Counted from the first letter of the stretch, positions 34,348-61,348 are shown. The stretch: 64,000 bases of DNA from Ferruginibacter sp. (GCA_040006715.1 JBDTWL010000011.1:3728-67727), one strand, 5' to 3'. Numbers and translations: made by a program. The notes: generated by a model from the letters alone, not told the origin.

Positions 34348-34363
34348 TGTCAATTTGCTGACA
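34348..34363 (+). promoter_or_regulatory. Crp/Fnr-type box upstream of the sigma-54 activator gene
   Basis: Perfect TGTCA-ATTTGC-TGACA; TTATTTTG ends at 34392, 29 nt downstream. Confidence 0.8.
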
Positions 34364-34450
34364 ATCCTTCCATAAATTAAGTGTTTATTTTGGCCAGGCA
34401 AATGCTTAACTTTAAATATCAAAACTAGTTGATATTAAACTTCTAATCAT

Positions 34451-37400
34451 ATGGGGAAAGTGATATCGAAAAATAAGGAATCCGACAAAGATCTGCACCT
34501 CTCCCATTTCTCATTGGAAAATCTCCATGAAGCAGTATTCTGGATCGATTCCAGGTCACATATCTTCCAGGTAAATGATATGGCCTGCCAGATGACGGGC
34601 TATTCCAAAGAAGATCTTTTAAAAAAAATGGTTGCAGACCTTAACCCAACCAATACAATAGCAGATTTTGAAACATTCTGGAAAAAACTAAAAAAGGAAA
34701 AGAAACTTACCTTCGATTCACAGCATCGCCATAAAGAAGGACACTTGTATGATGTTGAGGTAACCGGCAATTTTATAGAATACAATGGCGAAGAATTTTC
34801 ATGCAGTATTGTAAGGGATATCCGTAAAAAAAAGATGGAAGAAGAATTGTTACGCATCGTTTCTGAAGCAACCTCGGGCGTAACAGGAAAAGATTTTCTT
34901 GTCGAATTAACAAAGAACATCTGCAAAGTGATCGGTATGAAATATTGTTTCGTTGCCGAATGTGCAGATAGTGCGAAAACACGCTTTCGCACTATTGTAT
35001 TTACTGATGGAGAAAAAGTAATGGACAATTTCGAATATGATGCAAAAGATTCGGCCTGTCAAATGATGCTGAAAGCTGTTCCCTATTTTTTGGCAGAAGG
35101 CGCACAGAAATTGTTTAAAGGAGCTACCGGGATCGAATCATATATCGGTGCTCCTATCTTAAGCCATATAAATGGTGAAGTATTGGGACATATAGCCGCA
35201 AGCGATCCCAAACCAATCAGCAATGAAAAAAACCTCACCGCCATACTTCAGATATTCGCAGCAAGGATCGGTGCAGAATTAGCAAGGATGCAGGCAGAAG
35301 ATGCCCTTGAATCAAAGAATAAAGAATTAAACGACCGGTTAAGTGAAATAGAATTATATAACAGTACTGTAAAAAACTTGCAGGACCAGGTTTTCTGGCT
35401 CGATGATAAAGGAAAGTTTATCAGGGTAAATGATGCTGTAAGCAAAATTTCCGGTTACTGTGTAGATGAATTGATGCAGATGACCGTATTTGAACTTAAC
35501 CCTTCCCTTACAAAAAAAGAATGGGAAAAAGGATGGAGGGAAACGAAGAAGCACGGCCAGCAAATAATAGAGACAGAACATCGTACAAAGCAAGGACAAT
35601 CATATCCTGTAGAAGTTACCAACAATTTCATGACCCATAATGCTGTTGAATATTTCTGTTCGTCTGTAAGAGATATCCGCAAGCGTAAAATGGAAGAAGA
35701 ATTGTTACGTACCATTTCCGAAGCAACATCAGCACTGGTTGGCCAGGATTTCTTTGAAGCGCTCACAGAGTATGTTACCGTTTCTCTTGGTGTAAAAACA
35801 TGTATAATCACAGAATGCACAGATGCAGATAAGACAAGGGTACGAACACTTGCCTTCACCAAAGACAGCAAGTTGCAGGAGAACATTGAATATGATATAG
35901 AAGGAACGCCCTGTAAACTTGTGATGGAAGGAAAGGGATCCGACATTTTCATTTCATCAGGTGTTGACAAAACCTATCCCAAAGAAGCCGGTTATGATTC
36001 TTATGTTGCCGTACCCATCTATAGTTCGTCAAACAATGATGTGATCGGCCATATCGCTGCACTTGATGATCATCCGATGACCAACGAGATGAATCAAACA
36101 TCTATCCTCAAAATTTTTGCTGCCCGTGCAGGAGCAGAGATCGACAGGATAAAAGCAGAAGAAAAATTAAAGATCGCCAATGCCGATCTAAAGGTTTTAC
36201 TTAAAGAAAGTGAAGAACGTTTCCGCGACCTGTTTGAAGAAGCTCCGATCGCTTATGTTCATGAAGGGCTCGATTCTAAATTTATCAAAGCCAACCGTGC
36301 AGCTTTGAGTATCCTTGGTGTGAGGCCCGATGAAGTTCCAACAACTTATGGAAAGACAATGGCACCTGATACACCCGATGCACAGCGCCGCATGAAAGAA
36401 GCTTTTGAATCAGTGGGACGAGGTACTGACACAAGTGGCGTGGTGCTTGAGCTAAGACGTAAAGATAATGGCCAACCGATCTGGATACAGTGGTGGTCGA
36501 ACCCTGATGTTGGGGGGCAATTCACCAGGACCATGTTCATTGATATAACGGATAAAGTGTTGATGGAACAGGAACAGGCAAGGTTGCAGGCGCAGAACCA
36601 ATACCTGCAGGAAGAAATTAAATACAATAACAATTTTGAAGAGATCGTAAGCAAGAGCAAGAATTTTCATAAGGTCCTGCAACAGATCGAACAGGTTGCT
36701 TCAACAAATGCAACAGTGTTGATCATGGGTGAAAGCGGTACCGGTAAAGAATTGATCGCACGGGCTGTTCACAATATCAGCAACCGGAGTAAAAGGCCAT
36801 TGGTAAAAGTGAACTGTGCTACCCTTCCCGCCAATTTAATTGAAAGCGAATTGTTCGGGCATGAGAAAGGGGCATTCACCGGTGCGATGGAAAGAAAGAT
36901 CGGACGTTTTGAATTAGCAGATGGCGGTACCATCTTTTTAGATGAGATCGGTGAACTTCCTGTAGAATTACAGGCAAAATTATTACGTGTATTGCAGGAA
37001 GGCGAATTTGAAAGATTGGGCAATCCAAGAACTATGAAAGTAAATGTAAGGGTGATCGCCGCCACTAACCGCAACCTTGAACAGGCCATTGAGAAAAAAG
37101 AATTCAGGGAAGACCTTTATTACCGTTTGAATGTATTCCCGATAACCTGCCCGCCTTTGCGTGAAAGAAAAGAAGACATTCCATTGCTTGTAAAACATTT
37201 TTTACAAAAACATGAACCGAGGGTTGGTAAAAAGATCAGCAATGTATCGCCCAAAGTAATGGATATACTGAATACTTATGATTGGCCGGGTAATATCCGT
37301 GAACTGGAGAACCTGATAGAAAGGGCAATGATCTTATGTCCTGCGAATACGCTGCAGGAAGGTACATGGCTGCCTGTTACTAAATTTACTACTTTAAACG

Positions 37401-37573
37401 GCAAAGCAAACCTGCAAAAATTAGATGATGTGGAAAAGGATCACATTATGGAAATACTGAAACAAACCAACTGGAAAGTAAGTGGTGAAAAAGGCGCTGC
37501 AAAAATACTCGGCCTGAATGCAACAACACTTGAAGCAAGGATGAAGAAATTGGGAATTAAAAGAGAAGGCTAA
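34451..37573 (+). CDS. Sigma-54 enhancer-binding protein, PAS-GAF-PAS-GAF-PAS-AAA+-HTH (FhlA-like)
   Basis: [40 protein letters not shown] and WPGNIREL motifs plus C-terminal HTH; no receiver domain. Confidence 0.95.
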
Positions 37574-37645
37574 TTTGAGAATTTGGAGATGTGGAAATTT
37601 GAAAATTAAGAATGAATTTGCGAAAATATTTGATTTTCGAAAGTT
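37574..37645. repeat. Degenerate short-period intergenic repeat (AATTTG[A/G]AA-like)
   Basis: aatttgagaatttggagatgtggaaatttgaaaatt...aatttgcgaaaatatttg between convergent genes. Confidence 0.45.
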
Positions 37646-37647
37646 GA

Positions 37648-38712
37648 CTATCCCACCGAAAATTCATCCAATACTTTAATGTATTTACTGTTTTCCCTGA
37701 ACATTTGCAATCCCGAAGTAGTATCCATGTATGATAGCTTATAGTTTTTTTGATTCATCCTGCTTATCCTTGAAAGGATATCCAGGTGACGAATGATCTC
37801 TTTCCATGCAAAGAAGATAGAATGCCTGGGGTCATACATATGGGTGGGTTCACTACCGGCTCCGTTCAATTCAATGATGGAAAAATTCCTTCCCTGTCTT
37901 AACTCTTCCCAGCAATTATACCTTATATCAAGCCTTCCAAAATAAAAACCATTGATCTTTTTACAGGCATCGTCGATTGAATTAATAAGTGATTCATCGA
38001 TCAAATGGCTTGCATCCAGGAATTTGGCGCCCCGCACATGATTTCCGTAAGGTACCATTACACGACGCTGCCCTGCCTCAAGAACAGTATCAAAATCACT
38101 TCCGTCCGTACGTCGCAATGTTTCCAGCTGAAGGATAAAACGTTTATCCCTGCAAAGCAATTGTTCGATCGTTGATATCCCGTCACCGGTTAAGGATAAA
38201 AATTCCTTTTGCACGATCCCTGATATCTTGCCTTTTGCTTCGTTTGGATAACGATAATAAAAAATACCCACTTCATTTTCATAAGGGATAAATTCCTGTA
38301 TAAGAAAATCCACTTTTGATGATGCAATGTACCCTGCCAGCTCCTTATCATTCTCAATTTTCTTTACTGCTTTGCCCTGCATTCCTATATCCGGCTTGCC
38401 AATAAGGGGATATTGAAGGCCCCGGTCATTTATTTCTTTCAGCACATCTTTTAAAAATGTATTTGCTTTAAAGAATAAAGTAGCAGGATAATATTGTTGG
38501 GGCATCAGGTCATAGATCTCTTTTTTTGATTCAAGCAGGAAACCGCCGTTCTTTATTGTTGGGTTAGATGTACTGAAAAAGAAAAAAGAGCGTGCACGGA
38601 TGCCAAGCCATAGCCAATAAAAATAGATCGGCATATAAACAATATGAAAGGGCCAGTACTCCCAATTAAATAACTTTATAAAGAAAGGTTTATGCAATAT
38701 TGTCTTTAACAT
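37648..38712 (-). CDS. ATP-grasp (D-Ala-D-Ala-ligase-like) protein of unknown specificity
   Basis: NWEYWP N-terminus, LIGKPDIG, LIQEFI and FYFGRLDI...IIELNGAGSEP ATP-grasp motifs. Confidence 0.82.
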   Translation of the reverse strand: MLKTILHKPFFIKLFNWEYWPFHIVYMPIYFYWLWLGIRARSFFFFSTSNPTIKNGGFLLESKKEIYDLMPQQYYPATLFFKANTFLKDVLKEINDRGLQYPLIGKPDIGMQGKAVKKIENDKELAGYIASSKVDFLIQEFIPYENEVGIFYYRYPNEAKGKISGIVQKEFLSLTGDGISTIEQLLCRDKRFILQLETLRRTDGSDFDTVLEAGQRRVMVPYGNHVRGAKFLDASHLIDESLINSIDDACKKINGFYFGRLDIRYNCWEELRQGRNFSIIELNGAGSEPTHMYDPRHSIFFAWKEIIRHLDILSRISRMNQKNYKLSYMDTTSGLQMFRENSKYIKVLDEFSVG

Positions 38713-38722
38713 ACATTGATGA

Positions 38723-39460
38723 TTAAAATATATCAGCGGTCTCCCGTATAGATGAGACCAGTTTCATTTCTTTATTGTGGATACTTCTGTCCTTCAGGTC
38801 GAGGTACCTCATATTACAACGAAGAAATTCCATTGCAATACCCGTTACACTTACTGTTGATAAAAGCCCGTTGCGGTTCATGTTCAGGTCATTTTGCGTA
38901 TCCCCATCACCGGTAAATTTATGAAATGCGAAGATATCATCCTGTGCAGGAAGCGGGTTCTTATTCAGGAATGCTGCGAACCATTGTTCTCTTTTTTTCA
39001 CCACCTTTTCATCATACAAAGTTGAAGAGGACCAGATATAAGGCCGGTATTTTTTTAACTGCCTGCAATGCTTTGTTGAACCTGTCCACCTGCATTCATA
39101 CAGGCAGTTATCGAAAATGATCATGGTAAATGGTTCGATACCAGAAAGGGCCATATGCGTGAAATACCTTACGGGCATGATCGCATTGATGATCTCCAGG
39201 AAAATGATGCCCCTGCTTTTCCTGTAAGGTGCCATACTGGTATGCTTTTGAAAAGCCCCGTTCAAAAGGACAGCGGCGCATCCATTTTCATTCATAGCGA
39301 TCCAGGTCCCTCCTGCATCTGCATCCCTGGGATAAATGATCCTGTTGCCATTTACAAAATACAATTCGGGTGGAATGGCCTGTTTGCGGATAAATTTCTC
39401 ATCGCGGTTTGAAGTGATGTATATCCTGTCTTTGACGGGAATAAATGTTACTGTGCACAT
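38723..39460 (-). CDS. NRDE/TANGO2 family protein (Ntn-hydrolase fold)
   Basis: MCTV N-terminus, SNRDE, D..AGGTWI, LLNG, SRG and WSSSTLY motifs. Confidence 0.95.
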   Translation of the reverse strand: MCTVTFIPVKDRIYITSNRDEKFIRKQAIPPELYFVNGNRIIYPRDADAGGTWIAMNENGCAAVLLNGAFQKHTSMAPYRKSRGIIFLEIINAIMPVRYFTHMALSGIEPFTMIIFDNCLYECRWTGSTKHCRQLKKYRPYIWSSSTLYDEKVVKKREQWFAAFLNKNPLPAQDDIFAFHKFTGDGDTQNDLNMNRNGLLSTVSVTGIAMEFLRCNMRYLDLKDRSIHNKEMKLVSSIRETADIF

Positions 39461-39948
39461 GATCTGCGGTATTTAATGGTAGAAGTTGCAACGCCAAAAC
39501 CCTCAGGAATATTAATAGAAGAAACCTCGTTGATACCAACCCTGATCAGGGCCATATGATGTACGGTATGTTCCAGGTTATAGATGAGTTCACGGTAATA
39601 ATTGGTTTCAACCCCGATCGATTCTGTTGATTGTTCATCATAGCTGGAATCAAGTAATAAGCTTTTATTGCCCTTATCAATATTGTTGCAGATCATGTCC
39701 ATCAATTCGGTTGCAAGATCTTTGTCTGTTTCAATACGGATATCTCTTTTCCTTTTTTCATAATTCACAACACCTGTTTCATAACCATTGTATAGACAAA
39801 TGTATAATTCAATGATATGCCTTACATGCTGGCCAATAGAAGCATTGAACAATATCTTACTAGGCTGGGAGTATTCCCTTTCAGTCAATTGCTCAAGTGT
39901 TTCTTTCAGTTGCGAAAAGGAATTGTTGATGGCTGAATTTAATTGCAT
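39448..39948 (-). CDS. DinB family protein
   Basis: SIGQHVRH, VNYEKRKRD and LEHTVHH metal-binding His pattern. Confidence 0.9.
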   Translation of the reverse strand: MQLNSAINNSFSQLKETLEQLTEREYSQPSKILFNASIGQHVRHIIELYICLYNGYETGVVNYEKRKRDIRIETDKDLATELMDMICNNIDKGNKSLLLDSSYDEQSTESIGVETNYYRELIYNLEHTVHHMALIRVGINEVSSINIPEGFGVATSTIKYRRSCAQ

Positions 39949-39986
39949 AAAATTGATTTTAGTTTATTACCTGATGTTGAAGGCTG

Positions 39987-40718
39987 TTATTTAAAATTAT
40001 ATGAAACTCCTAACCCGAAAGTATTTGCCTTATTACGGAAACGATCATTCCTGGTACCATCGGGTGCGACCTGTTCCACGTTCTCGGTCTTATATTCTAC
40101 AAATACAAATTGGTAAACTGCTTTGATCCCCCAGCGTTGTGTAATCCTGTACTTTAAAAAGAATTCAGAGTTGAGGCTTCCTCGATCGTGATCTCCTGTC
40201 AACAATAAGTTGAAAGAAGCAGGCTTTGCCATAGGTTCTATCTTGGTTGCACCGTTTGCTTTGAATATGGCGCTACTCTCTCTCCCGAATGTGAACCCTG
40301 CCAGGTCAATATTAAAACCCGCATTCCACTTGCGGCTGAAATTATATCCAAGGTTGATACTTATATTAACAGAATTCGTCAATGGCCTTTGCACGGTAAG
40401 GGTATCCTGGTAATCGGTTCTTTGTCCCGCAAAGAATATTAAGAATGGAATTGTATTCGTACGTGCCAGTCTTGCAGGGGCAGTAGTAAAATCTGTTTTG
40501 GTTCCAAAGTAGCTTGTCCACCTGAGTCCAAGGCCTGCTTCCCATTTCTTCCTCTTGCCTATTTTCCAGTTGTGAACGTAAGAAGCAGCTGCTGTACCCT
40601 GGTATTTACCAATAGTGCCAGTAAGATCAACAAACTGGTCAATGCGTGAAGATCTATTTTGCGCATTGGTTGTAGAAACAGCAAACAGCACACTAATAAT
40701 CAATAAATATTTTTTCAT
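39987..40718 (-). CDS. Hypothetical outer-membrane beta-barrel protein
   Basis: Signal peptide, alternating amphipathic strands, C-terminal FGLGVSYNF. Confidence 0.7.
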   Translation of the reverse strand: MKKYLLIISVLFAVSTTNAQNRSSRIDQFVDLTGTIGKYQGTAAASYVHNWKIGKRKKWEAGLGLRWTSYFGTKTDFTTAPARLARTNTIPFLIFFAGQRTDYQDTLTVQRPLTNSVNISINLGYNFSRKWNAGFNIDLAGFTFGRESSAIFKANGATKIEPMAKPASFNLLLTGDHDRGSLNSEFFLKYRITQRWGIKAVYQFVFVEYKTENVEQVAPDGTRNDRFRNKANTFGLGVSYNFK

Positions 40719-40761
40719 TTTAAGCGTAATTAAGAACTACGAAGGGTTTTTATCAAGAGAT

Positions 40762-41166
40762 TTATTTACAAATAATATTTTTTATAAACACTAAGGCTTC
40801 ATTCCTGTATATGAGCAATAAGCCAAAACAACTCAGGAATACAAGCAAAGCATATATGAATAACTGCCCGCCATCATTCTTTACTACCAGGCCAAGTTTT
40901 GTCAGGTGAAAAAATAGGGCACCAGACATCACTCCCATTCCAAGTACTGCTCCCAACCAGGTGGTCCTGGGATAGATTATTAATATGGATGCGATCAGTT
41001 CTACAATGCCCGAAGCGATCCTGCCCCATGGTTCCATCCCAACTGTAGTAAAAATATAAACCGATTCCTCCGAAGCACTGAACTTGAAGTACAATGTCTG
41101 GAGCATAATAATGGCGGCGACCAGCCTCAGTGCCCACGTTCCTATTACTGAATAATTAATTGTCAT
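40762..41166 (-). CDS. DoxX family membrane protein
   Basis: LQTLYFKF, EPWGRI..G..E and GALFFHLT.LG motifs. Confidence 0.9.
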   Translation of the reverse strand: MTINYSVIGTWALRLVAAIIMLQTLYFKFSASEESVYIFTTVGMEPWGRIASGIVELIASILIIYPRTTWLGAVLGMGVMSGALFFHLTKLGLVVKNDGGQLFIYALLVFLSCFGLLLIYRNEALVFIKNIICK

Positions 41167-41191
41167 TGTTTAAATTTATTTTATATACAAT

Positions 41192-41252
41192 CCGCCTTCG
41201 CCAAGATCAGGCTGACCATATATTGTCATGTTGAGCTTGGCGAAACATAGAC
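41192..41252. repeat. Inverted pair of REP-like elements
   Basis: CCGCCTTCGCCAAGATCAGGCTGAC followed by GTCATGTTGAGCTTGGCGAAACATAGAC. Confidence 0.7.
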
Positions 41253-41261
41253 AGTATAAGG

Positions 41262-41729
41262 TCAATGAAATATTTTTTGCCAGTTAGCATCAGCATGTTG
41301 CTTTAATGTGCTCTCATTCTTATTCCAGGATTTCAAAGTATTATTGAATAAGCGGTTGTAAAAAAGATAAAGCTTACCGGAAACTATCTTGAAGGTTTCG
41401 GGGTCAACATTTACTTTAGAACCATCATTTCCCATCGCATAAGCACACCATCCGCCATATTGTGGTTCATAAGCAGCAGGATTCTTTTTAAAGGCTTCTT
41501 TATTTTCAGCAGAAGAAAAACGATAACTGATCCCTTCATAAAAAACATTACCCAATTCTTTTTTCCCTTTTATCGCTTTTCCTTCCTTAAAATATGCAAC
41601 AGGATCATACCCCTGGATAGCGATGCCATCATCAAGGTTGAATTGGCTTTTACGAACCAGTGCATCCTGCGAAAATGCATTCAGTATAAATGTGCTTAGA
41701 ATCACAGTGAGGAAAGGCTTTATTCTCAT
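41262..41729 (-). CDS. Exported YHS-domain protein (paralog 1)
   Basis: GYDPVAYF, YRFSS.EN...F...P..YEPQYGGWCAYAM and KLYLFYN motifs; ATG 41729 gives a clean signal peptide and lies downstream of a -7 box. Confidence 0.92.
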   Translation of the reverse strand: MRIKPFLTVILSTFILNAFSQDALVRKSQFNLDDGIAIQGYDPVAYFKEGKAIKGKKELGNVFYEGISYRFSSAENKEAFKKNPAAYEPQYGGWCAYAMGNDGSKVNVDPETFKIVSGKLYLFYNRLFNNTLKSWNKNESTLKQHADANWQKIFH

Positions 41730-41777
41730 TTTATGAAATTTTATAGAACAAATATAGGCTGCCCCCGAACCATGGGT

Positions 41778-41793
41778 TGTCGGGCAAATGACA
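41778..41793 (-). promoter_or_regulatory. Crp/Fnr-type box of the YHS-DoxX-...-ATP-grasp operon
   Basis: Minus strand TGTCA-TTTGCC-CGACA; canonical TATATTTG ends at 41749, 29 nt away. Confidence 0.8.
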
Positions 41794-41858: not shown

Positions 41859-41893
41859 TCCCAACATTTTGTGAGATTCCCAATAGGTTGGGA
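41859..41893. promoter_or_regulatory. Tandem dyads, candidate enhancer (UAS) for the sigma-54 activator
   Basis: TCCCAA-CATT-TTGTGA (41859-41874) and perfect TCCCAA-TAGG-TTGGGA (41878-41893). Confidence 0.55.
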
Positions 41894-41994: not shown

Positions 41995-42009
41995 TGGCAC
42001 AGCGGTTGG
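41995..42009 (+). promoter_or_regulatory. Candidate sigma-54 -24/-12 promoter
   Basis: TGGCAC-AGCGG-TTGG versus consensus TGGCAC-N5-TTGC; only the -12 C differs. Confidence 0.6.
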
Positions 42010-42040: not shown

Positions 42041-42364
42041 ATGAATAAGATGATCACAAAAGCAAATTTTAAGAAAGAAGTAGCAGAAAGCAATACCCTG
42101 TCATTGGTTCAATTTAAAACAGACTGGAATGGAGCTTCACAGATCGTATCTATGATATACGATGACCTGGCAAGATCATATAAAGGCATCGCAAATTTTC
42201 ATACAGTAGATTATGAAAATGAGCTGGCCCTGGTGAACGAGTATGGTGTAATGGAAGTCCCTACGATCCTTTTTTTCAAAGGGGGGATGATGATCGATCA
42301 TGTTGTGGGGCTGGTTCCAAAAAATGCGCTGATATCGAAGATCGAAAATCATTTATCTAAATAA
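42041..42364 (+). CDS. Thioredoxin-fold protein lacking all cysteines
   Basis: LVQFKTDWNGAS replaces WCGPC; cis-Pro motif EVPTILFFKGG retained; no Cys in 107 aa. Confidence 0.88.
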   Translation: MNKMITKANFKKEVAESNTLSLVQFKTDWNGASQIVSMIYDDLARSYKGIANFHTVDYENELALVNEYGVMEVPTILFFKGGMMIDHVVGLVPKNALISKIENHLSK

Positions 42365-42397: not shown

Positions 42398-43078
42398 ATG
42401 TACAACGAACTAAAATATGTTTACCTGAAAAGCCATCCACTTTTCGCAAACATGTCTGAAAAACAAGTTAATGATGCTTGTGAGCTGATGAAAGTAAAAA
42501 CCGTGTACCGTGGGGAGACATTTGATTATGGTGACGGGGATTATAGCAAAATATATCTTTTAATAAAAGGTAAGATCAAGATCACGCTTTGTGATGATAT
42601 GGACAATGAGTTGATCAAAGATATCCTTACAGCCCCGGATATTTTCGGTGACCTGAGCCTTGATGGCCGTCCATCAAGCGATGAATTTGCACAGGCATTG
42701 ATGGCAAATACAGTTGTATGTTTTTTCAATGCAACCGATTTCAAGAATATCCTCCAGGATAATGTTATGCTTGCCATGAATTATGCAAATACAGTGAATA
42801 ACAAACTCAAGAAACTGGAAAGCAGGCATTCAGACCTGGTATTCCATGATGCAAAGGCAAGGCTGATCCGTTTTATCAAGAACTGGGCAAAAACAGATGG
42901 CAACCGTATCGGCGATAAAATAATCCTGAACAATTATTTAACCCATAGTGATATAGCAGGTGTTATAGCTACTTCACGGCAGAGTGTGAATGTATTGTTC
43001 AATGAACTCCGTGATGCCGGTATGCTGATGTATGACAGGAAGAGGATACAGCTGAATGATATGATCGCTTGGAATTGA
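42398..43078 (+). CDS. Crp/Fnr family transcriptional regulator
   Basis: cNMP-binding-like barrel (IYLLIKGKIKI, DIFGDLSL) and HTH LTHSDIAGVIATSRQSV. Confidence 0.95.
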   Translation: MYNELKYVYLKSHPLFANMSEKQVNDACELMKVKTVYRGETFDYGDGDYSKIYLLIKGKIKITLCDDMDNELIKDILTAPDIFGDLSLDGRPSSDEFAQALMANTVVCFFNATDFKNILQDNVMLAMNYANTVNNKLKKLESRHSDLVFHDAKARLIRFIKNWAKTDGNRIGDKIILNNYLTHSDIAGVIATSRQSVNVLFNELRDAGMLMYDRKRIQLNDMIAWN

Positions 43079-43082
43079 TACC

Positions 43083-43157
43083 CTTTGTGTTACTTAGTGA
43101 TTTAGTGTCTTTGTGGCGAATTTATTCTTTGCCACTAAAACACAAAGGCACAAAAAG
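43083..43157. repeat. Intergenic inverted repeat with roughly 9-nt internal period
   Basis: ctttgtgtt...tttagtgtctttgtggc / gccactaaaacacaaaggcacaaaaag. Confidence 0.7.
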
Positions 43158-43168
43158 CTGCTCAAAGT

Positions 43169-43184
43169 TGTCCACCGCACGACA
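43169..43184 (+). promoter_or_regulatory. Crp/Fnr-type box upstream of the SDR-GH63-debranching genes
   Basis: TGTCC-ACCGCA-CGACA; TACTTTTA ends at 43213, 29 nt downstream. Confidence 0.7.
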
Positions 43185-43236
43185 ATACAATTTTTCATCA
43201 CACAATACTTTTACAAAATAAAACAATAACATAAAC

Positions 43237-44043
43237 ATGCAACAAAAATTACAGGACCAGGTGGCTATTGTAACAGGTGCCAGCAGTGGCATTGGAGCCG
43301 GATGCGCCATGGAACTTGCCAGGGCAGGGGCAAAAGTGATCGTGAACTACCCCATTCCCCAGGGAAAAGAAATGGCAGAGAAAGTGGTGGAACAAATTGT
43401 GGCTGATGGCGGCAGGGCCATATCATACAAATGCGATGTGAGTAAAGAAGATGAGGTAAAACAAATGTTTGCAGACACGATCAAAGAATTTGGTACTGTT
43501 GATATCCTTGTTAACAATGCAGGGCTTCAAAAAGATGCTCCATTCACCGAAATGACATTGGATCAATGGAATTTTGTTTTAGCTGTAAATTTAACAGGGC
43601 AATTTCTTTGTGCAAGGGAAGCCATTAAAGAATTTTTACGCCGTGGAGTAAATGGCAAATCAAAAAGTGCCGGCAAGATCATTTGTATGAGCAGTGTGCA
43701 TGAAGTTATTCCATGGGCTGGACATGCAAACTATGCTGCAAGCAAAGGCGGCGTTATGCTGATGATGAAAACGATCGCACAGGAATTTGCGCCAAAGATG
43801 ATCCGCATTAACAGCATTGCCCCCGGTGCTATTGCAACTCCCATCAATCATGATGCATGGGATACACAGGCCCACCTGCAGGAATTATTAAAACTGATAC
43901 CGCAAAAAAGAGTCGGGCAGGTTGATGATATTGGTAAAGCAGCGGTTTGGTTGGCAAGTGATGACAGTGATTACGTAAATGGAACTACCTTGTTTGTTGA
44001 TGGGGGAATGACCTTGTACCCGGGATTTGAAGACAATGGATAA
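43237..44043 (+). CDS. SDR oxidoreductase, glucose 1-dehydrogenase-like
   Basis: TGASSGIG, NNAG, SSVHEVIPW, YAASKGG and GTTLFVDGGMTLYP motifs. Confidence 0.88.
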   Translation: MQQKLQDQVAIVTGASSGIGAGCAMELARAGAKVIVNYPIPQGKEMAEKVVEQIVADGGRAISYKCDVSKEDEVKQMFADTIKEFGTVDILVNNAGLQKDAPFTEMTLDQWNFVLAVNLTGQFLCAREAIKEFLRRGVNGKSKSAGKIICMSSVHEVIPWAGHANYAASKGGVMLMMKTIAQEFAPKMIRINSIAPGAIATPINHDAWDTQAHLQELLKLIPQKRVGQVDDIGKAAVWLASDDSDYVNGTTLFVDGGMTLYPGFEDNG

Positions 44044-44045
44044 AG

Positions 44046-44193
44046 GCCCATCTACCTCCCCGAAGCCCGCCCGGCTGAATGCCGTTCGGACGGGGGGAGA
44101 AAAAGGAGAAGATTGATGCGATCCTTTACAAGATATTAAATTTAATAATCCCATTTCACGTACCCTTCCCTTTGGGAAGGGGTTGGGGATGGG
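44046..44193. repeat. REP/MITE-like inverted pair with a nested palindromic insert
   Basis: GCCCATC..CCTCCCCGAAG[CCCGCCCGG...CCGTTCGGACGGG]GGGAG on the left; CCCTTCCCTTTGGGAAGGGTTGGGGATGGGC on the right. Confidence 0.7.
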
Positions 44194-44206
44194 CTAAAAT
44201 AAAAAC

Positions 44207-46870
44207 ATGAACGCCGAACAACAAAGATTGCAACAACCCGGTTGGAAAAAGTGGGGGCCTTATTTAAGTGAGCGTCAATGGGGCACTGTAAGGGAAGATT
44301 ATAGTGAGAATGGAAGCGCCTGGGATTCTTTCTCACATGATGATGCACGCAGCCGTGTATATCGCTGGGGCGAAGATGGCATTGCAGGCATCAGTGATGA
44401 CCAGCAACACATTTGTTTTGCACTCGCTTTGTGGAATGGAAAGGATCCTATTTTAAAAGAAAGGTTGTTCGGCTTAACGGGCAATGAAGGCAATCATGGT
44501 GAAGATGTAAAGGAATTGTATTACTATTTGGATAATACACCTACGCATTCATACATGAAGCATTTGTACAAATACCCGCATGCGGAATTCCCTTATGCAG
44601 ACCTGGTAAATACAAATAAGCATCGTTCAAAAACCGAAGGCGAATATGAATTGCTTGATACGGGTTTATTCAATGATGGAAAATATTTTGATATAACCAC
44701 TGAGTATTCAAAGAATGCTACAGAAGACATTTGTATCAGGATCACGATCAGTAACCGTGCGAATGAAGCCGCTTATATTGCCCTGCTGCCAACACTTTGG
44801 CTGCGCAACCTGTGGAGCTTTGGCCTGATGCATGAGAAACCAAAAATGTATATCAAAGAAATTGGAGAAACCCTCGGGGAAGTAATAGTAGATCATTACT
44901 GGGAAGGTAAATATCATTTTTATTTTGAAAAACCTACGCATACCCTGTTCACAGAAAATGAAACGAATACAGAACGCTTGTATGGGAAGCCGAATCCGTC
45001 ACCCTATGTAAAGGATGCTTTTCACACGGCAGTTCAGCAAAACCGTTTTGATTGGCTGGAAGAAAAAAAGGAAGGAACAAAGTTTGCACCGATGTATGAA
45101 TTCAATGTAGCAGCCAATTCAGCTGTTGTTGTAAAACTCAGGTTGAGCAAACATCATGTTGAAACCGGTCCTTTTGATGCTTCATTTGATAAAATATTTA
45201 CAGATCGCATCACTGAAACAGATGTGTTCTATAAAGAGATAACAACCGCAACAGGCCAGGACCAGGTAAATATCCAACGCCAGGCATTTGCCGGAATGTT
45301 GTGGAGCAAACAATATTACAATATCGATATTCCACGTTGGCTGAATGGTGATCCCGGTCAGCCTGCACCACCGGAAAGCCGGAAGAAAGGCCGAAACCAT
45401 CAATGGCATTCATTGAACAATGAAGACATTATTTCAATGCCCGACAAATGGGAATATCCGTGGTATGCCGCATGGGACCTGGCTTTTCATTGTGTGCCAC
45501 TTTCAATGGTAGATCCGCAGTTTGCAAAGGACCAGCTCATTTTATTCTTACGTGAATGGTATATGCATCCAAATGGGCAGTTGCCTGCATACGAATGGGC
45601 ATTCGGTGACGTGAACCCACCCGTACATGCCTGGAGTTGTATGCAGGTATATAAGATCGATAAGCATAAAACTGGTAAAAGCGATATTAACTTCCTGAAA
45701 AGAGTATTTCAAAAACTGCTGATCAATTTCACCTGGTGGGTGAATAGAAAAGATTCAAAAGGCAATAATGTTTTTGAAGGAGGTTTTCTTGGATTGGATA
45801 ATATTGGTGTATTTGACAGGAGCAGTGCAATACCTGGCGGCGGAATTTTAGAACAGGCTGATGGCACAAGCTGGATGGCCATGTATTCTTTGAATATGCT
45901 GGAAATGGCTTTGGAAATTTCCCAATATGATGACAGTTATGAAGACGTGACCACTAAATTCTTTGAGCACTTTGTTTATATAGCCGAATCATTAAACAAA
46001 ATGGGCTCTGATTGGACAGGCAGCTGGAATGATGAAGAAGGATTCTTTTATGATGTGCTCGAATTACCGGGTGCAAACTACATCCCGCTAAAAGTAAGGA
46101 GCCTCGTGGGTTTGACAACATTGTTCGCTGTATTCGTTTTGAAAAAAGACCTGTTGGATAAAGTTCCGGATTTTCACAACCGTTTAAAATGGTTCCAGAA
46201 ATACAGGGAAAAGAACAATCAATACCTGGTGATCGAAGAATTGAATGATCATGATGATATATTGTTATCACTTGTACCAAAAGCAAAGCTTGAAAAATTA
46301 CTGAAAGCATTGCTGGATGAAAATGAATTTTTATCAACAGGTGGCATACGTTCAATTTCAAAAATTCATGAACGTGGTTATTCGGTGAATATTGAAGGTC
46401 AGGAATTCGGATTGGAATATACTCCTGCTGAAGGAACAACTTCTTTATTTGGCGGTAACAGTAATTGGCGTGGGCCGATATGGATGCCGATGAACTATTT
46501 GATCGTACTGGCATTGCAGCAATATGGAGAATATTACAAGGATGAAGCGTTGATAGAATACCCAACCGGTTCAGGGAACAAGATGATGATAAACGAGATA
46601 GCAAATAAAATTGCAGAACGTTTGATATCAATCTTTGAAAAAGATAAAAACGATCAGCGTCCTGTAAATGGAACAGAAAGCATTTACCAGGAAAATGAAC
46701 ACTTTAAAGATCTAATTTTATTTTATGAATATTTTCATGGCGATAACTCAAGAGGAGTTGGAGCATCTCATCAAACAGGCTGGACTGGTGTTGTAGCAGA
46801 ACTGATAAACAGGGTCAATACTCCACAAACAGCAAAGAAGAAAAAAATCAGGGAAGAAATTATTATGTAA
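44207..46870 (+). CDS. GH63/MGH1-like glycoside hydrolase
   Basis: WGPYLSERQWGTVREDYS, MPDKWEYPWYAAWDLAFH, FLGLDN and GASHQTGWT motifs. Confidence 0.92.
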   Translation: MNAEQQRLQQPGWKKWGPYLSERQWGTVREDYSENGSAWDSFSHDDARSRVYRWGEDGIAGISDDQQHICFALALWNGKDPILKERLFGLTGNEGNHGEDVKELYYYLDNTPTHSYMKHLYKYPHAEFPYADLVNTNKHRSKTEGEYELLDTGLFNDGKYFDITTEYSKNATEDICIRITISNRANEAAYIALLPTLWLRNLWSFGLMHEKPKMYIKEIGETLGEVIVDHYWEGKYHFYFEKPTHTLFTENETNTERLYGKPNPSPYVKDAFHTAVQQNRFDWLEEKKEGTKFAPMYEFNVAANSAVVVKLRLSKHHVETGPFDASFDKIFTDRITETDVFYKEITTATGQDQVNIQRQAFAGMLWSKQYYNIDIPRWLNGDPGQPAPPESRKKGRNHQWHSLNNEDIISMPDKWEYPWYAAWDLAFHCVPLSMVDPQFAKDQLILFLREWYMHPNGQLPAYEWAFGDVNPPVHAWSCMQVYKIDKHKTGKSDINFLKRVFQKLLINFTWWVNRKDSKGNNVFEGGFLGLDNIGVFDRSSAIPGGGILEQADGTSWMAMYSLNMLEMALEISQYDDSYEDVTTKFFEHFVYIAESLNKMGSDWTGSWNDEEGFFYDVLELPGANYIPLKVRSLVGLTTLFAVFVLKKDLLDKVPDFHNRLKWFQKYREKNNQYLVIEELNDHDDILLSLVPKAKLEKLLKALLDENEFLSTGGIRSISKIHERGYSVNIEGQEFGLEYTPAEGTTSLFGGNSNWRGPIWMPMNYLIVLALQQYGEYYKDEALIEYPTGSGNKMMINEIANKIAERLISIFEKDKNDQRPVNGTESIYQENEHFKDLILFYEYFHGDNSRGVGASHQTGWTGVVAELINRVNTPQTAKKKKIREEIIM

Positions 46871-46874
46871 GGAA

Positions 46875-46954
46875 TTTCACGCAAAGTATCAAAGAAATAC
46901 AAAGCTGCAAATACTCTTTGCGTCTTTGCGAGGACTTTGCACCCTTGCGTGAAA
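46875..46954. repeat. Intergenic inverted repeat with short internal period
   Basis: tttcacgcaaag...caaag...caaag / ctttgcgtctttgcg...ctttgcacccttgcgtgaaa. Confidence 0.7.
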
Positions 46955-46967
46955 TAAAAATAATATC

Positions 46968-49820: not shown

Positions 49821-50264
49821 TTATTCGTTATTTTTTAACCCGGGCCAATTCTTATTGGCATCTTCTATACGCTTTGCCTGGTTCTTATTCCAATACTCTT
49901 TCACTTTTAAATTGTAGTTAAGGTAAAGTTTACCATCAACAATTGTCCATGCTTCAGGATCTGTAGGTGCCTTGTGTGCTTCCGACATACCATAAGCACA
50001 ATAACCACCAAATTGTGGGGCATATTTTGAAGGATCGAGTTTAAAACTGTCAAGGTTTTGTTTATTGGAAAATATCCAGTCCGCTTCATTCCAGGTAAAA
50101 CTGAATTGCTCATTTCCTTTTACCGGTTTTCCTTCTTTAAAATAAGCCACAGGGTCATAACCGTGAATGGCATTTCCATCATTGATAAATACTTCAGATC
50201 TCTGCGCCGATAAATTAAGCGTGGCAAGCATTACAAGGGTAAGGGTTAACATGTTTTTTTTCAT
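49821..50264 (-). CDS. Exported YHS-domain protein (paralog 2)
   Basis: Signal peptide; GYDPVAYF, YAPQFGGYCAYGM and DGKLYLNYN motifs. Confidence 0.93.
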   Translation of the reverse strand: MKKNMLTLTLVMLATLNLSAQRSEVFINDGNAIHGYDPVAYFKEGKPVKGNEQFSFTWNEADWIFSNKQNLDSFKLDPSKYAPQFGGYCAYGMSEAHKAPTDPEAWTIVDGKLYLNYNLKVKEYWNKNQAKRIEDANKNWPGLKNNE

Positions 50265-50311
50265 AAATTATTTTTTGAAGCACAAAATTATTCTCATGAA
50301 AAAAAGGGAAA

Positions 50312-50327
50312 AGTCAGCCAGGTGACA
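50312..50327 (-). promoter_or_regulatory. Crp/Fnr-type box upstream of YHS paralog 2
   Basis: Minus strand TGTCA-CCTGGC-TGACT; canonical TAATTTTG ends at 50283, 29 nt away. Confidence 0.8.
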
Positions 50328-51224: not shown

Positions 51225-51240
51225 CGTCACTTACCTGACA
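51225..51240 (+). promoter_or_regulatory. Crp/Fnr-type box upstream of the GMC oxidoreductase
   Basis: CGTCA-CTTACC-TGACA; TCTCTTTG ends at 51269, 29 nt downstream. Confidence 0.78.
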
Positions 51241-51287
51241 AAAAAGATCTAGGATTTTACTTCTCTTTGTTTTTTAAAACCAGAAAC

Positions 51288-53335: not shown

Positions 53336-53351
53336 TGTCAGGCCATTGACA
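53336..53351 (+). promoter_or_regulatory. Crp/Fnr-type box upstream of the aquaporin gene
   Basis: Perfect TGTCA-GGCCAT-TGACA; TCTCTTTG ends at 53380, 29 nt downstream; ATG at 53385. Confidence 0.82.
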
Positions 53352-53384
53352 ATCGGGATCTGTAAAAAGTTTTCTCTTTGTCTT

Positions 53385-55490: not shown

Positions 55491-55506
55491 TGTCAGCTGA
55501 CAGACC
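55491..55506 (-). promoter_or_regulatory. Degenerate Crp/Fnr-type box facing the 72-aa ORF
   Basis: Minus strand GGTCT-GTCAGC-TGACA; TATGTTTA ends at 55462, 29 nt away. Confidence 0.5.
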
Positions 55507-55561: not shown

Positions 55562-55577
55562 AGTCATCTACATGACA
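55562..55577 (+). promoter_or_regulatory. Crp/Fnr-type box upstream of the S8 peptidase operon
   Basis: AGTCA-TCTACA-TGACA; TTGTTTTG ends at 55606, 29 nt downstream; ATG at 55611. Confidence 0.78.
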
Positions 55578-55610
55578 GCTTACAAACAGGCGATCATGTT
55601 GTTTTGCCTT

Positions 55611-57266: not shown

Positions 57267-57271
57267 ATGAG

Positions 57272-57499: not shown

Positions 57500-57518
57500 G
57501 ATTTTTTTGTAAAATATC

Positions 57519-57959
57519 ATGGTAAAGCAATTAAGAAAAAGACATTTACAGGTATGGGCAGTATTGCTGTTGCTGATCCCCTGTGCCATCATTGCCGGGT
57601 GGCTTGTTATTCCAAATCAACAGCCCGGTAATCTTTTGCAGCCACAGGAATCAACTGCCTTACAAGTGATCTTAAAGTCTGTTCAAAAAGAAAATTACAT
57701 AGTAAACCTTCGCACAAACAATGACAGGTCTGCCAGCCAGTTAGAATGGATAAACAAGTCTGCTTTGACCAGCCCGTCGGCGCTTATCTATAAGTTGACA
57801 AATACTTCAACCAAAGATATCAGCAGCAATGACCTTATCGGTAGGATCGATGTAAAAGGAACATACCATTTCCCGTTGAAGAATGATTCAGCAGTCAACA
57901 ACAAATTTGTTTTGTACGATATCATTCACCAACAGGTAATTGATACAATAAATTTTTAA
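57519..57959 (+). CDS. Membrane-anchored hypothetical protein
   Basis: LRKRHLQVW followed by one TM segment and a beta-rich domain; operonic spacing. Confidence 0.75.
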   Translation: MVKQLRKRHLQVWAVLLLLIPCAIIAGWLVIPNQQPGNLLQPQESTALQVILKSVQKENYIVNLRTNNDRSASQLEWINKSALTSPSALIYKLTNTSTKDISSNDLIGRIDVKGTYHFPLKNDSAVNNKFVLYDIIHQQVIDTINF

Positions 57960-57961
57960 GC

Positions 57962-59002: not shown

Positions 59003-59008
59003 ACAGGA

Positions 59009-59869
59009 ATGAATAATGAATTTTATATAGGATGGTTGCCAAAAGCACCTGGTGGTTTTGCAAAACACATTAAAAAAGTATTGCTGGCACTTTTACCTGT
59101 CATGATAATTGTTGGAATAACACTGGCATTACTGCAAAAGAAATTCGACACAGGGAATTTTGAATTCGGCAAACTAACAGAAGTAAAAGGAATATATTTT
59201 AATAAGCCCGTTCCAATGATCAAAGTGGTCAATGGTAAAGATATCTGGGGAAATATTTCTTACCTGGGTATTCCCCTCGTTGGATATGGCAAGCATGGAG
59301 CTGAAGGCATCATGATGGAGCTTGAAAAAGAAAAGAATATTTCTCTTACACAAAAAGAGATCACATTGAAAGGCACCCTTATCTACAATGATGGCAAGAC
59401 GATCATGCAGGTAAATGAAGATGATAACCCTCTAGTTCATGTGGCAGATTCAAAAGCAGCAAATGAATTATTACAACAACAAAAAGACCTGGGTGTTTCA
59501 AAGGTCAAAGGTGAGATCATCGACCCTAAATGTTATTTTGGAGTGATGAAACCCGGTGAGGGCAAGGTTCACAGGGATTGTGCCATCCGTTGTATACTGG
59601 GTGGTATTCCACCGATGATGAAGGTTAGAAATGAAAAAGGAGAAAACAATTATTACCTGGTCGTTGGGCCAAATGGAGAGAATATGAATAATGCTGTACA
59701 GGATTATGTAGGGGAACCGGTGGAAATAGAAGCAAACCTCGTACAATATGACGACTGGATCGTAATGTATGTGAAAAGTGATAAGTTGATCAGCCGTATC
59801 TCTACTCTTGCGCTGTTAAGGAATGAAACAGCTATCATATCCTGTACAATGGGGAACTGCAATAAATAA
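59009..59869 (+). CDS. Membrane-anchored hypothetical protein with a Cys/His motif
   Basis: One TM segment; GEIIDPKCYFGVMKPGEGKVHRDCAIRCILGGIPP. Confidence 0.78.
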   Translation: MNNEFYIGWLPKAPGGFAKHIKKVLLALLPVMIIVGITLALLQKKFDTGNFEFGKLTEVKGIYFNKPVPMIKVVNGKDIWGNISYLGIPLVGYGKHGAEGIMMELEKEKNISLTQKEITLKGTLIYNDGKTIMQVNEDDNPLVHVADSKAANELLQQQKDLGVSKVKGEIIDPKCYFGVMKPGEGKVHRDCAIRCILGGIPPMMKVRNEKGENNYYLVVGPNGENMNNAVQDYVGEPVEIEANLVQYDDWIVMYVKSDKLISRISTLALLRNETAIISCTMGNCNK

Positions 59870-59870
59870 T

Positions 59871-60581
59871 TTATTGACCGTTGTTGTACATTTCTATACT
59901 TTTCATCCTTCTTATGATCGTCTCGGGATTCATATACCTTTCTTTTTCCATCATCTTATTAATATTATCAGCTCCAACCCAGTTTTTATGCTTCAATGCC
60001 TTGCGCACATTGATACTCCAGGCCAATAATTGATATCCAAGTCCATGAGCAATGCAGATACTATCTGTACCGTATTCAAATTTGTCTAAAAATTTTGAAG
60101 AAAGATTTCCGAAACCTACCCTCAAAATGCCTGGCATATTTTTATTGTTAAAATCAACAACATGGCTTATCTCATGCCCTATCACTCCAACCTGTGCATC
60201 AAAGTCAAGCGACCTGAAAAGAATGGGAGATAATTGCTTGATGGTCTTATCACTGATAGTGATCACATATTTCCTGCTGCGCTTATCCAGGAATATACTT
60301 GTCCATGCCGGTCTCGAAGACAAGGGAGTGAGCACATGTTTTATACGGAATTCAATTTTTATGTTGGCCAGTTCGGGGAAGAAACAAAGCGCCAGGAGAA
60401 TGGGCTTTTCGTATTCCGTTGGAATTATCTTATTACTAGCAACCTTGGCCCTGATCAATGAATATACTTCCTCATTCAGGTCAGTTTGGGCAAAAGATCT
60501 CACCGGCACTTGTCCTGAGCAAAAGGAAGAAACAAGTACGAAAAGAAACAGTATGGTACTTTTTATTTTTTTTCTGATCAT
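59871..60581 (-). CDS. Exported hypothetical protein, putative zincin-like metalloprotease
   Basis: Signal peptide, GVIGHEISH (HExxH) and downstream E (FEYGTD); overlaps the CoaB stop by 4 nt. Confidence 0.6.
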   Translation of the reverse strand: MIRKKIKSTILFLFVLVSSFCSGQVPVRSFAQTDLNEEVYSLIRAKVASNKIIPTEYEKPILLALCFFPELANIKIEFRIKHVLTPLSSRPAWTSIFLDKRSRKYVITISDKTIKQLSPILFRSLDFDAQVGVIGHEISHVVDFNNKNMPGILRVGFGNLSSKFLDKFEYGTDSICIAHGLGYQLLAWSINVRKALKHKNWVGADNINKMMEKERYMNPETIIRRMKSIEMYNNGQ

Positions 60582-61288
60582 GCTGTCATTAGACTGGGCA
60601 AGATAATATCAAATTGGTACTGCTGCATCAAAAGGGTTGCCACTTCTTCCACAATATCACGGGCCACCGAAATTTTATCTTTCAATGGGAAATCTGTTTG
60701 TGAAAGATCCTTCTTAATGATGCTGATCTTGTTTGTATCAAACCCAAAGCCTGCCTGGTTGTCATTCATAGAATTCAATACAACCATATCGAAATTCTTT
60801 TTATTCAATTTACCAACAGCATGCTTTACTTCATCATTGGTCTCTAATGCAAAACCAACCGATAATTGCTTTGCAGACTTCACTTTGCCAAATTCATAGG
60901 CAATATCCACGTTCTTTACCATTTTAATGGTAAAAGAAGATTCATCCTTTTTTATTTTATGCTCAGCAATGCTTTCAGGGCGATAATCAGCAACAGCTGC
61001 AGCAAATACAGCTATATCCAGCTGCTCATAAAACATACAGCATGCCAGGTCCATTTCAGAAGCAGTGTCAACTTTAATGATCCTCAGCCTGGGATGTACC
61101 ATATCTATATTAACAGGGCCAGAGACCAATACAACTTCAGCTCCCTGCATTAAAAATTGTTCAGCAATAGCATAACCCATTTTACCGGAAGAATGATTGC
61201 TGATATAGCGAACGGGATCAATAGCCTCCCTGGTAGGGCCGGCCGTGATCAAAACCTTCTTATTTTTTATAATGCATTCCATGATCAT
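60578..61288 (-). CDS. coaB: Stand-alone phosphopantothenate--cysteine ligase (CoaB domain only)
   Basis: ITAGPTREAIDPVRYISNHSSGKMG, AAAVADY, KIKK, VGFALET and KNFDMVVLN motifs; no N-terminal CoaC flavoprotein domain. Confidence 0.88.
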   Translation of the reverse strand: MIMECIIKNKKVLITAGPTREAIDPVRYISNHSSGKMGYAIAEQFLMQGAEVVLVSGPVNIDMVHPRLRIIKVDTASEMDLACCMFYEQLDIAVFAAAVADYRPESIAEHKIKKDESSFTIKMVKNVDIAYEFGKVKSAKQLSVGFALETNDEVKHAVGKLNKKNFDMVVLNSMNDNQAGFGFDTNKISIIKKDLSQTDFPLKDKISVARDIVEEVATLLMQQYQFDIILPSLMTA

Positions 61289-61332
61289 TGGTTATTATAG
61301 GATCAAATCTATTTAATATTGGTATCAGTGAT

Positions 61333-61348
61333 TGTCGGCAACCTTACA
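61333..61348 (-). promoter_or_regulatory. Crp/Fnr-type box upstream of coaB
   Basis: Minus strand TGTAA-GGTTGC-CGACA; canonical TAGATTTG ends at 61304, 29 nt away. Confidence 0.72.

Follow-up and report, generated by a model that had tools for sequence, protein, structure and literature searches.

A 16-bp dyad at a fixed distance from -7 boxes marks a probable Crp/Fnr-type regulon in Ferruginibacter and related Chitinophagaceae

The DNA described here (the window) is a stretch of 64,000 nucleotides from Ferruginibacter sp. (GCA_040006715.1, JBDTWL010000011.1:3728-67727), part of an assembly of 3.95 Mb in 107 contigs with 40% GC, in which it occupies positions 3728-67727 of the 71-kb contig C11. 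Between 34348 and 61348 the window carries nine copies of a 16-bp dyad (the box), each at the same distance from a -7 promoter element, and within the cluster lies a gene (42398-43078) for a regulator of the Crp/Fnr superfamily, referred to below as the 42398 protein. The boxes precede genes for YHS-domain proteins, alpha-glucan enzymes, oxidoreductases, channels and a subtilase, among others (Table 1), and past the end of the window further boxes precede YHS genes that head a DUF336-gluconolactonase-SDR operon. Very probably, the boxes are sites for this island-encoded regulator at about a dozen promoters.

Table 1. Boxes, promoters and genes of the island within the window (the 21 nt are the spacer between box and -7 box).
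Feature	Position	Strand	Description
Box TGTCAATTTGCTGACA + 21 nt + -7 box TTATTTTG	34348..34392	+	Predicted promoter of the sigma-54 activator gene
Sigma-54 enhancer-binding protein	34451..37573	+	PAS/GAF sensor domains, AAA+, Fis-type helix-turn-helix (Pfam, NCBIfam)
Six-gene operon	37648..41729	-	First gene of the YHS (seleno)protein family; start corrected to 41729
Box TGTCATTTGCCCGACA + 21 nt + -7 box TATATTTG	41749..41793	-	Predicted promoter of the YHS-DoxX-outer-membrane (OM) barrel-DinB-NRDE-ATP-grasp operon
Tandem TCCCAA-N4-TTGGGA dyads	41859..41893	+	Probable upstream activator sites for the sigma-54 activator
Sigma-54-type -24/-12 promoter TGGCACAGCGGTTGG	41995..42009	+	Precedes the thioredoxin-like and crp genes
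Thioredoxin-fold protein	42041..42364	+	Degenerate active site WNGAS; predicted co-transcription with crp
Crp/Fnr-family regulator	42398..43078	+	Recognition helix TSRQSV; proposed box binder
Box TGTCCACCGCACGACA + 21 nt + -7 box TACTTTTA	43169..43213	+	Predicted promoter of the SDR-GH63-like-debranching enzyme operon (43237-48965)
Box TGTCACCTGGCTGACT + 21 nt + -7 box TAATTTTG	50283..50327	-	Predicted promoter of the second YHS gene (50264-49821) and a TMEM175-type channel gene (49774-49076)
Box CGTCACTTACCTGACA + 21 nt + -7 box TCTCTTTG	51225..51269	+	Predicted promoter of the GMC oxidoreductase gene (start 51288), probably also of DUF1622
Box TGTCAGGCCATTGACA + 21 nt + -7 box TCTCTTTG	53336..53380	+	Predicted promoter of the MIP channel gene (ATG 53385) and a glyoxalase-fold gene
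Box-like site, -7 reading TATGTTTA	55491..55506	either	Composite pattern matched in both orientations
Box AGTCATCTACATGACA + 21 nt + -7 box TTGTTTTG	55562..55606	+	Predicted promoter of the S8 subtilase-CBM48 gene (ATG 55611)
Membrane Rieske/ferric-reductase (redox) genes	to 59869		Continuation of the S8 subtilase-CBM48 transcription unit
Box TGTAAGGTTGCCGACA + 21 nt + -7 box TAGATTTG	61304..61348	-	Predicted promoter of the DFP-domain gene (61288-60578) and an unassigned gene (60581-59871)

On reading both strands, the nine boxes are found where a preliminary description of this DNA had placed them, five in plus and four in minus orientation; between each of them and the 8-mer -7 box downstream there are exactly 21 nt, which puts the promoter-proximal edge of the box 29 nt from the last base of the -7 box, as that description had it. 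Its further claim that GT (box positions 2-3) and GAC (positions 13-15) are invariant on the transcribed strand likewise stands in all nine sites. The formula that it gave for the box, TGTCA-N6-YGACA, is matched perfectly by only three of the nine; the six imperfect boxes differ at positions 1, 4, 5 or 16, and on the transcribed strand the box of the window reads nGT[C/A]n-N6-YGACn, with no conservation among the 21 spacer bases. As a search pattern the strict palindrome recovers three of the nine sites, a count that was also reached by one of 100 shuffles; it is too narrow, and the composite pattern GTM-N7-YGACW-N21-T-N3-TTTR was therefore used instead. The -7 boxes fit TnnnTTT[G/A], the Bacteroidota -7 type, and read, in coordinate order, TTATTTTG, TATATTTG, TACTTTTA, TAATTTTG, TCTCTTTG, TCTCTTTG, TATGTTTA, TTGTTTTG and TAGATTTG; those reading TATATTTG, TAATTTTG and TAGATTTG are near consensus, and those reading TCTCTTTG and TTGTTTTG lack the TA.

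There are nine matches to the composite pattern in the window, whereas 100 dinucleotide shuffles gave 0.01 on average, which excludes chance. Across the whole assembly it is found ten times at the 21-nt spacing, all ten on contig C11, and each of the other spacings from 14 to 30 gives 0-4 matches genome-wide, none of them on C11. The genome has 117 copies of the half-site core GTC-N8-GAC alone; 31 of these are intergenic, of which nine fall in the 38-70 kb section of C11. When the nine sites are turned into a position weight matrix, its best new intergenic matches are at 65491(-), 66162(-) and 66254(+), just past the end of the window, and the scan of the rest of the genome yields no convincing site off the island. 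Therefore, the regulon is private to an island of about 32 kb: the regulon across about 27 kb that had been described is real, its extent grows by three more sites, and it has no genome-wide reach.

The same arrangement is conserved in relatives. Among 24 genomes of the same genus, two have an orthologue of the regulator (56-57% identity), and both loci are syntenic and keep the module (box, 21 nt, -7 box) at the GMC, MIP, S8 and YHS orthologues, in intergenic surroundings that have diverged. With an alignment of three regulators, 65 Chitinophagaceae-type loci (1.05 Mb) were retrieved from some 60 related species, in genera that include Ferruginibacter, Niastella, Puia, Terrimonas, Lacibacter and Chitinophaga; their regulators are 52-90% identical, save for one Cytophagales locus at 35%. 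Cultured strains that carry the orthologue include Niastella vici DJ57, Niastella caeni HX-16-21, Terrimonas sp. R1, Terrimonas pollutisoli H1YJ31 and Ferruginibacter sp. SUN106. In the 65 loci the composite pattern is found 113 times at 21 nt, and the other spacings between 12 and 32 give 0-7 matches each; at least one match is present in 57 of the 65, although the loci are phylogenetically non-independent and such counts overstate the number of independent events. The conservation to be expected at orthologous promoters is thus confirmed.

The conservation profile of these sites points to a protein-binding dyad. Positions that the search pattern leaves free are nonetheless biased in the relatives (T1 81%, A5 81%, A16 94%, and the A of the -7 box 71%), and the N6 core and the spacer hold no information. 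When the proximal half and the -7 box are fixed, the distal GT is present in 152 of 186 cases (82%) versus 3 of 42 in the control, and when the distal half is fixed, GAC is present in 97 of 121 (80%) versus 2 of 32. The two halves are interdependent and co-conserved, and the box is therefore best described as a dimer site and not as a one-sided promoter element.

The genes downstream of 156 sites in the relatives fall into few families. Counting from the gene side, with a box required within 250 nt upstream, the box precedes 34 of 36 YHS, 35 of 48 GH57, 15 of 18 GMC, 7 of 8 MIP and 7 of 9 OM-barrel orthologues, and it is absent before the internal operon genes GH63 (0/57), GDE (0/44) and ATP-grasp (0/25), as well as before the thioredoxin-like (0/61) and crp (0/63) genes. 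No orthologous example of the DFP-gene box was found among the genes downstream of the relatives' sites. In most relatives (48 of them) a GH57 gene (Pfam) heads the SDR-GH63-GDE operon directly after crp; the genome of the window has no GH57 (43079-43236, compared with L013:13666-15045 and most of loci L018-L080), and its box stands directly before SDR.

The YHS proteins of the island (41262-41729 and 49821-50264; past the window, L017:8178-9170 and 9312-9848) match NCBIfam NF041384, 'YHS domain-containing (seleno)protein', with 135 bits against a cut-off of 70, and there are four such paralogues, one with a duplicated domain, all preceded by a box and hence predicted to be under its control. 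At the double-YHS gene three genomes have conserved a box-like element, TGTAAAATGCCCGACA, at 50-51 bp from the true box on its upstream side (L017:9269, equivalent to about 65541 in window numbering; L014:2386; L016:7860). This element supplies the 5' arm of a hairpin that resembles a terminator (AAAATGCCCG…CGGGCATTTT, then a T run); it may serve as terminator or as second binding site, or in both roles.

The position of the box relative to transcription can be estimated from published promoter maps. Differential RNA sequencing in Flavobacterium psychrophilum places TAnnTTTG at -12 to -5 (PMC9723704), and the dyad centre would therefore lie at -41.5. The centre near -41.5 that had been proposed for the window thus agrees with the published register: with transcription starts predicted in this way, the box spans -49 to -34, and its proximal half-site covers the position of the -33 element, with GACA at -36 to -33. 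At generic intergenic TAnnTTTG sites of this genome there is a weak T/TTG enrichment at -36 to -33, that is, in the same place as GACA. Many sites that fail the strict -7 pattern have TAnnTTG[Y] in the same register, in agreement with a one-base-shorter -7 variant reported in F. psychrophilum (PMC9723704). A dimer site near -41.5 that overlies the -35/-33 region at a fixed distance from the -7 box is the arrangement of class II activation, as judged from these predicted starts.

The positions of start codons fit the same register. In 11 of the 156 sites the first ATG that opens an open reading frame (ORF) lies exactly 4 nt past the -7 box, two of them in the window (53385 and 55611) and the other nine in loci L019-L078; such an ATG is almost never found 5-11 nt past the -7 box, and farther downstream it is found mostly at 16-20 nt. 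This accumulation at 4 nt is what is expected if leaderless mRNAs begin at the predicted +1, and the transcripts of the MIP channel, the S8 subtilase and several other genes are probably leaderless, to judge from the sequence. In several MIP orthologues the ATG 4 nt past the -7 box adds a conserved extension that begins MRAMN. The four corrected ORF starts of the preliminary description (41729, 51288, 53385 and 55611) are consistent with both orthologue alignments and promoter positions.

The candidate reader of the box is the regulator encoded inside the cluster, as is the case in 57 of the 65 loci. The 42398 protein belongs to the Crp/Fnr superfamily, with an N-terminal beta-barrel of the cNMP-binding type (PF00027, 32.3 bits with a cut-off of 27.5) and a C-terminal winged helix-turn-helix of the Crp type (PF13545, 38.4 bits with a cut-off of 27), and it falls far under every curated subfamily threshold: NF008732 (CRP) gives 44.4 bits against 266, NF008365 (FNR) 18.5 against 228, and TIGR03697 (NtcA) 53.5 against 244.95. 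Its helix reads SRQS where that of CRP reads SRET, and its box, which needs GAC at positions 13-15, also sets it apart from NtcA. NtcA is nonetheless the nearest full-length solved structure and NCBIfam match, while the best PDB match of the DNA-binding domain alone is CooA, with which it shares the SRQ helix. The TSRQSV helix is invariant in 63 orthologues despite the divergence of the whole protein, whose overall identity is 53-89%, and of the four Crp-like proteins in the genome only this one has an R-Q helix, the other three being of R-E or other type. The combination of an Arg-Gln helix with the box TGTC[A/G]-N6-[C/T]GACA is that of CooA.

The pairing of box and helix extends beyond the family. 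A blind scan with the strict composite pattern covered one genome per species in 185,579 species genomes; among the first 80 matches listed, mostly of Bacteroidota, 19 have a Crp homologue within 8 kb, and all 19 homologues carry an SRQ[ST] helix, in a scan that is motif-selected and whose neighbour genes are used qualitatively, with no enrichment statistic. Among the listed homologues are proteins from Flavobacteriaceae, Cyclobacteriaceae and Ignavibacteriales that share 27-43% identity with the 42398 protein, and those of the Melioribacteraceae and Ignavibacteriales loci (L105, L141) have an SRQT helix and are 27-30% identical to it. Box and helix therefore go together across a wider clade. 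In Puia, Flavitalea and other Chitinophagaceae (L087, L107, L128, L139, L149, L162) a second family of Crp paralogues, about 30% identical to the 42398 protein and with the helix SSRQTVTT, adjoins box-bearing YHS/DoxX/DinB genes, which suggests that two related regulators share or partition this type of operon.

The regulator gene itself appears to be controlled from another kind of promoter. A sigma-54-type promoter, TGGCAC-N5-TTGG (its -12 element reads TTGG where the textbook form is TTGC), precedes the thioredoxin-like gene; it is conserved in 44 of 63 loci, on the upstream side of crp and some 400 nt from it. Of 49 sigma-54-like promoters in the relatives, 37 have TCCCAA-Nx-TTGGGA dyads farther upstream, at 115-137 nt. 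The genome encodes RpoN (a protein with an RpoN box on contig C23), and in 33 loci a gene for a sigma-54 activator lies no more than 10 kb away. The thioredoxin-like and crp genes thus have the features of sigma-54-dependent transcription (-24/-12 elements, dyads, an enhancer-binding protein and RpoN), and the conserved promoter is observed as directly as the motif, its spacing, its conservation, its targets and the helix type. The thioredoxin-like gene is upstream of crp in 62 of 63 loci. Its product is free of cysteine in the window, and most orthologues (L018-L080) keep only the second cysteine (WSGAC, WSGPC, WNGAC); the first active-site cysteine is replaced in every orthologue with a readable motif. 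The orthologue of the sigma-54 activator in a related genome (G023, L015:118-2850) aligns in two contiguous blocks and skips residues 589-710 of the window protein, a loss of about one PAS domain.

Taken together, these observations support the earlier proposal of one Crp/Fnr-type factor that acts at the class II position of co-regulated promoters, to which spacing, dyad, targets, geometry and helix all point. It is probable that a dimer of the 42398 protein binds the boxes as a class II activator of about a dozen units in the ~32-kb island. The dimer would sit on the dyad TGT[C/A]A-N6-[C/T]GACA, centred at about -41.5 of a Bacteroidota sigma-A promoter, so that the promoter-proximal half takes the usual place of the -33 element, and from there it would most likely recruit RNA polymerase. 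The regulator does not autoregulate through a box; instead it would be expressed from the sigma-54 promoter shared with the degenerate thioredoxin-fold gene, with the adjacent PAS/GAF sigma-54 activator as the presumed driver. This would make a two-tier cascade, in which a signal acts on the sigma-54 activator, this on the thioredoxin-like protein and Crp, and these on the box promoters; the box at the activator gene would close a positive loop in this genome. Binding itself, activation, transcription starts and the signal are deduced from sequence. The alpha-glucan/glycogen enzymes, exported YHS/DoxX/DinB proteins, oxidoreductase and channels faintly suggest a starvation- or stress-type programme.

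Besides the shared ancestry of the loci and the motif-based selection of the blind scan, several points weigh against this reading. Activation is preferred over repression from geometry and rigidity of spacing only. Of 36 orthologues of the sigma-54 activator gene only 3 carry a box, and the feedback loop is therefore lineage-specific and not a conserved feature. Several sensory features of the known regulators are not found in the 42398 protein: Arg82 of CRP, the contact with cyclic AMP, aligns with Ser (in an alignment of 23% identity); the N-terminal cysteine cluster that holds the [4Fe-4S] centre of FNR is absent, C108 being the only cysteine conserved among three orthologues; and CooA, whose heme ligands are the N-terminal Pro2 and, in Rhodospirillum rubrum, His77, has no counterpart to Pro2 here, residue 2 being Tyr in the three orthologues. 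Finally, the site at 55491, which had been counted among nine promoters, matches the pattern but is doubtful as a promoter, without a credible target. Read on the minus strand, its only downstream ORF is one of 72 aa, for which no homologue was found in 150 related loci and which was rejected as a supported gene for that reason; the site might assist the S8 promoter from upstream, at 71 bp from centre to centre, or be an orphan minus-strand promoter.

Another way of looking at the boxes is to consider the same protein as a repressor, which would cover the -33 region of constitutive promoters until a signal arrives. The overlap of the site with the place of the -33 element would suit such a role, and with near-consensus -7 boxes such as TATATTTG, TAATTTTG and TAGATTTG the promoters need not be weak. 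Moreover, a -33 motif is globally undetectable in Flavobacterium johnsoniae (PMC7366714), and its absence here is therefore non-diagnostic. Operators, however, tolerate variable positions, whereas the spacing here is fixed in 113 of about 130 cases across diverged species; a spacing fixed to the base pair is therefore taken as the signature of a contact between protein and polymerase. The TCTCTTTG and TTGTTTTG boxes, without TA, also speak against a repressor, and a regulator that is itself made only when a sigma-54 promoter is switched on is more readily understood as an activator than as a repressor present by default, so that repression is considered unlikely.

It is also conceivable that the box is real and that its reader is another Crp/Fnr paralogue or an unrecognised factor. 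The genome does encode three more Crp-like proteins, and the SRQT-helix paralogue described above adjoins box-bearing YHS/DoxX genes in some Chitinophagaceae. Nevertheless, the 42398 gene is the one that lies within the box cluster and encodes the sole R-Q paralogue of the genome, its helix stays constant in a protein that otherwise diverges, the island has no sigma-factor gene, and the symmetric, co-conserved halves favour a dimer over a sigma -35 element; a different reader is thus quite improbable.

Chance, or a dispersed repeat that resembles a regulatory site, might be read into the three perfect palindromes among nine and into another repeat containing TGTCGAAACATAGACA that does occur in the genome, but it is refuted as good as completely by the shuffles, by a genome distribution in which all matches with the right spacing lie on one contig, by the spacing at orthologous loci, and by a conservation profile in which half-sites and -7 box are kept at orthologous promoters while the N6 core, flanks and 21-nt spacer hold almost no information and the surrounding sequence has diverged. 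A different dyad, TGTCGAAAcATAGACA, recurs in intergenic DNA (C1:299405, C4:62784, C8:18779, C14:17154, C20:27816, C28:4733, C38:28090) within a longer repeat unit, some 60 nt in length (…GCTCAGGCTGACAG…CTGTCATGTTGAGCT-TGTCGAAACATAGACA), that could form internal hairpins; this unit has the look of a REP/MITE-like element (repetitive extragenic palindrome or miniature inverted-repeat transposable element) unrelated to the regulon. The TGTCGAAACATAGACA sites elsewhere were accordingly rejected as weak members of the regulon, since they belong to this longer intergenic repeat.

One of the closest known systems is CooA, the CO-sensing (carbon monoxide) activator of Rhodospirillum rubrum, Carboxydothermus and Desulfovibrio, which shares the Crp/Fnr fold, the Arg-Gln helix (SRQT/TRQT versus TSRQSV) and a nearly identical box, TGTC[A/G]-N6-[C/T]GACA; the cooS sites of Desulfovibrio CooA read TGTCGGCTAGCCGACA (PMC545781). 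It differs in that whole-protein similarity to the 42398 protein is low (36-49 bits), that no coo or CO-dehydrogenase genes are found among the box-preceded genes, and that here the host belongs to Bacteroidota, with -7/-33 promoters and predicted sigma-54 expression together with a thioredoxin-like partner. A second parallel is Cmr (Rv1675c) of the Mycobacterium tuberculosis complex, whose consensus from systematic evolution of ligands by exponential enrichment (SELEX), TGTCANNNNNNC/TGACA, with clustered sites, has been called nearly identical to the CooA site (PMC4705688). This consensus is identical to the box described here, and the sites are clustered in both systems; Cmr, however, has an Arg-Pro helix as opposed to Arg-Gln, and is autoregulated with hundreds of sites at variable positions, unlike the present regulator, with no box before any of 63 crp genes and one fixed position.

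Class II promoters centred at -41.5 are well known from the galP1 type of E. coli and from cyanobacterial NtcA, with GTA-N8-TAC. The CRP, FNR and NtcA promoters of this class share with the present ones a 16-bp dyad GT-N10-AC at -41.5 that replaces the -35/-33 element, with rigid downstream spacing, and differ in the letters of the half-sites and in the polymerase partner, which here would be Bacteroidota sigma-A with TAnnTTTG. HcpR of Porphyromonas was considered as a model and set aside; it belongs to a different branch and gave no information on the box. No description of class II activation for the Bacteroidota sigma-A polymerase was found in the searchable literature, and nothing relevant was found there on the exact box string or on a Bacteroidota/Chitinophagaceae regulon of this kind. 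Thus, the type of box (CooA/Cmr) and the class II mechanism are already known and no new mechanism is involved; what is new, in that no published description was found, is the conserved content of the regulon, its coupling to the Bacteroidota -7 promoter, and the cascade from sigma-54 to the thioredoxin-like protein and Crp.

Regulation in Bacteroidota other than Bacteroides is largely uncharted, and their sigma-A uses atypical -7/-33 promoters. Against this background the island offers a testable case, with a defined cis-element, an exact geometry, a candidate activator and about a dozen operons, in some 60 species of which several are cultured. Four gene starts are corrected and leaderless transcripts are predicted, and a common control is proposed for YHS (seleno)proteins, DoxX, DinB, the NRDE/ATP-grasp pair, the CBM48-subtilase and the membrane Rieske module, together with glycogen-degrading enzymes. 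More speculatively, and with considerable doubt, this may be a two-tier stress or starvation programme of Chitinophagaceae (and, with the paralogues, of much of Bacteroidota/Ignavibacteriota), in which an obligatory thioredoxin partner gates or assists the activator, and which would comprise glycogen mobilisation, YHS/DoxX/DinB proteins and channels, partly from leaderless transcripts. If the proposed reading is true, the boxes would represent the first defined activator-polymerase architecture for Bacteroidota sigma-A, and the island would be a candidate general stress regulon in a phylum for which, to our knowledge, there is no RpoS.

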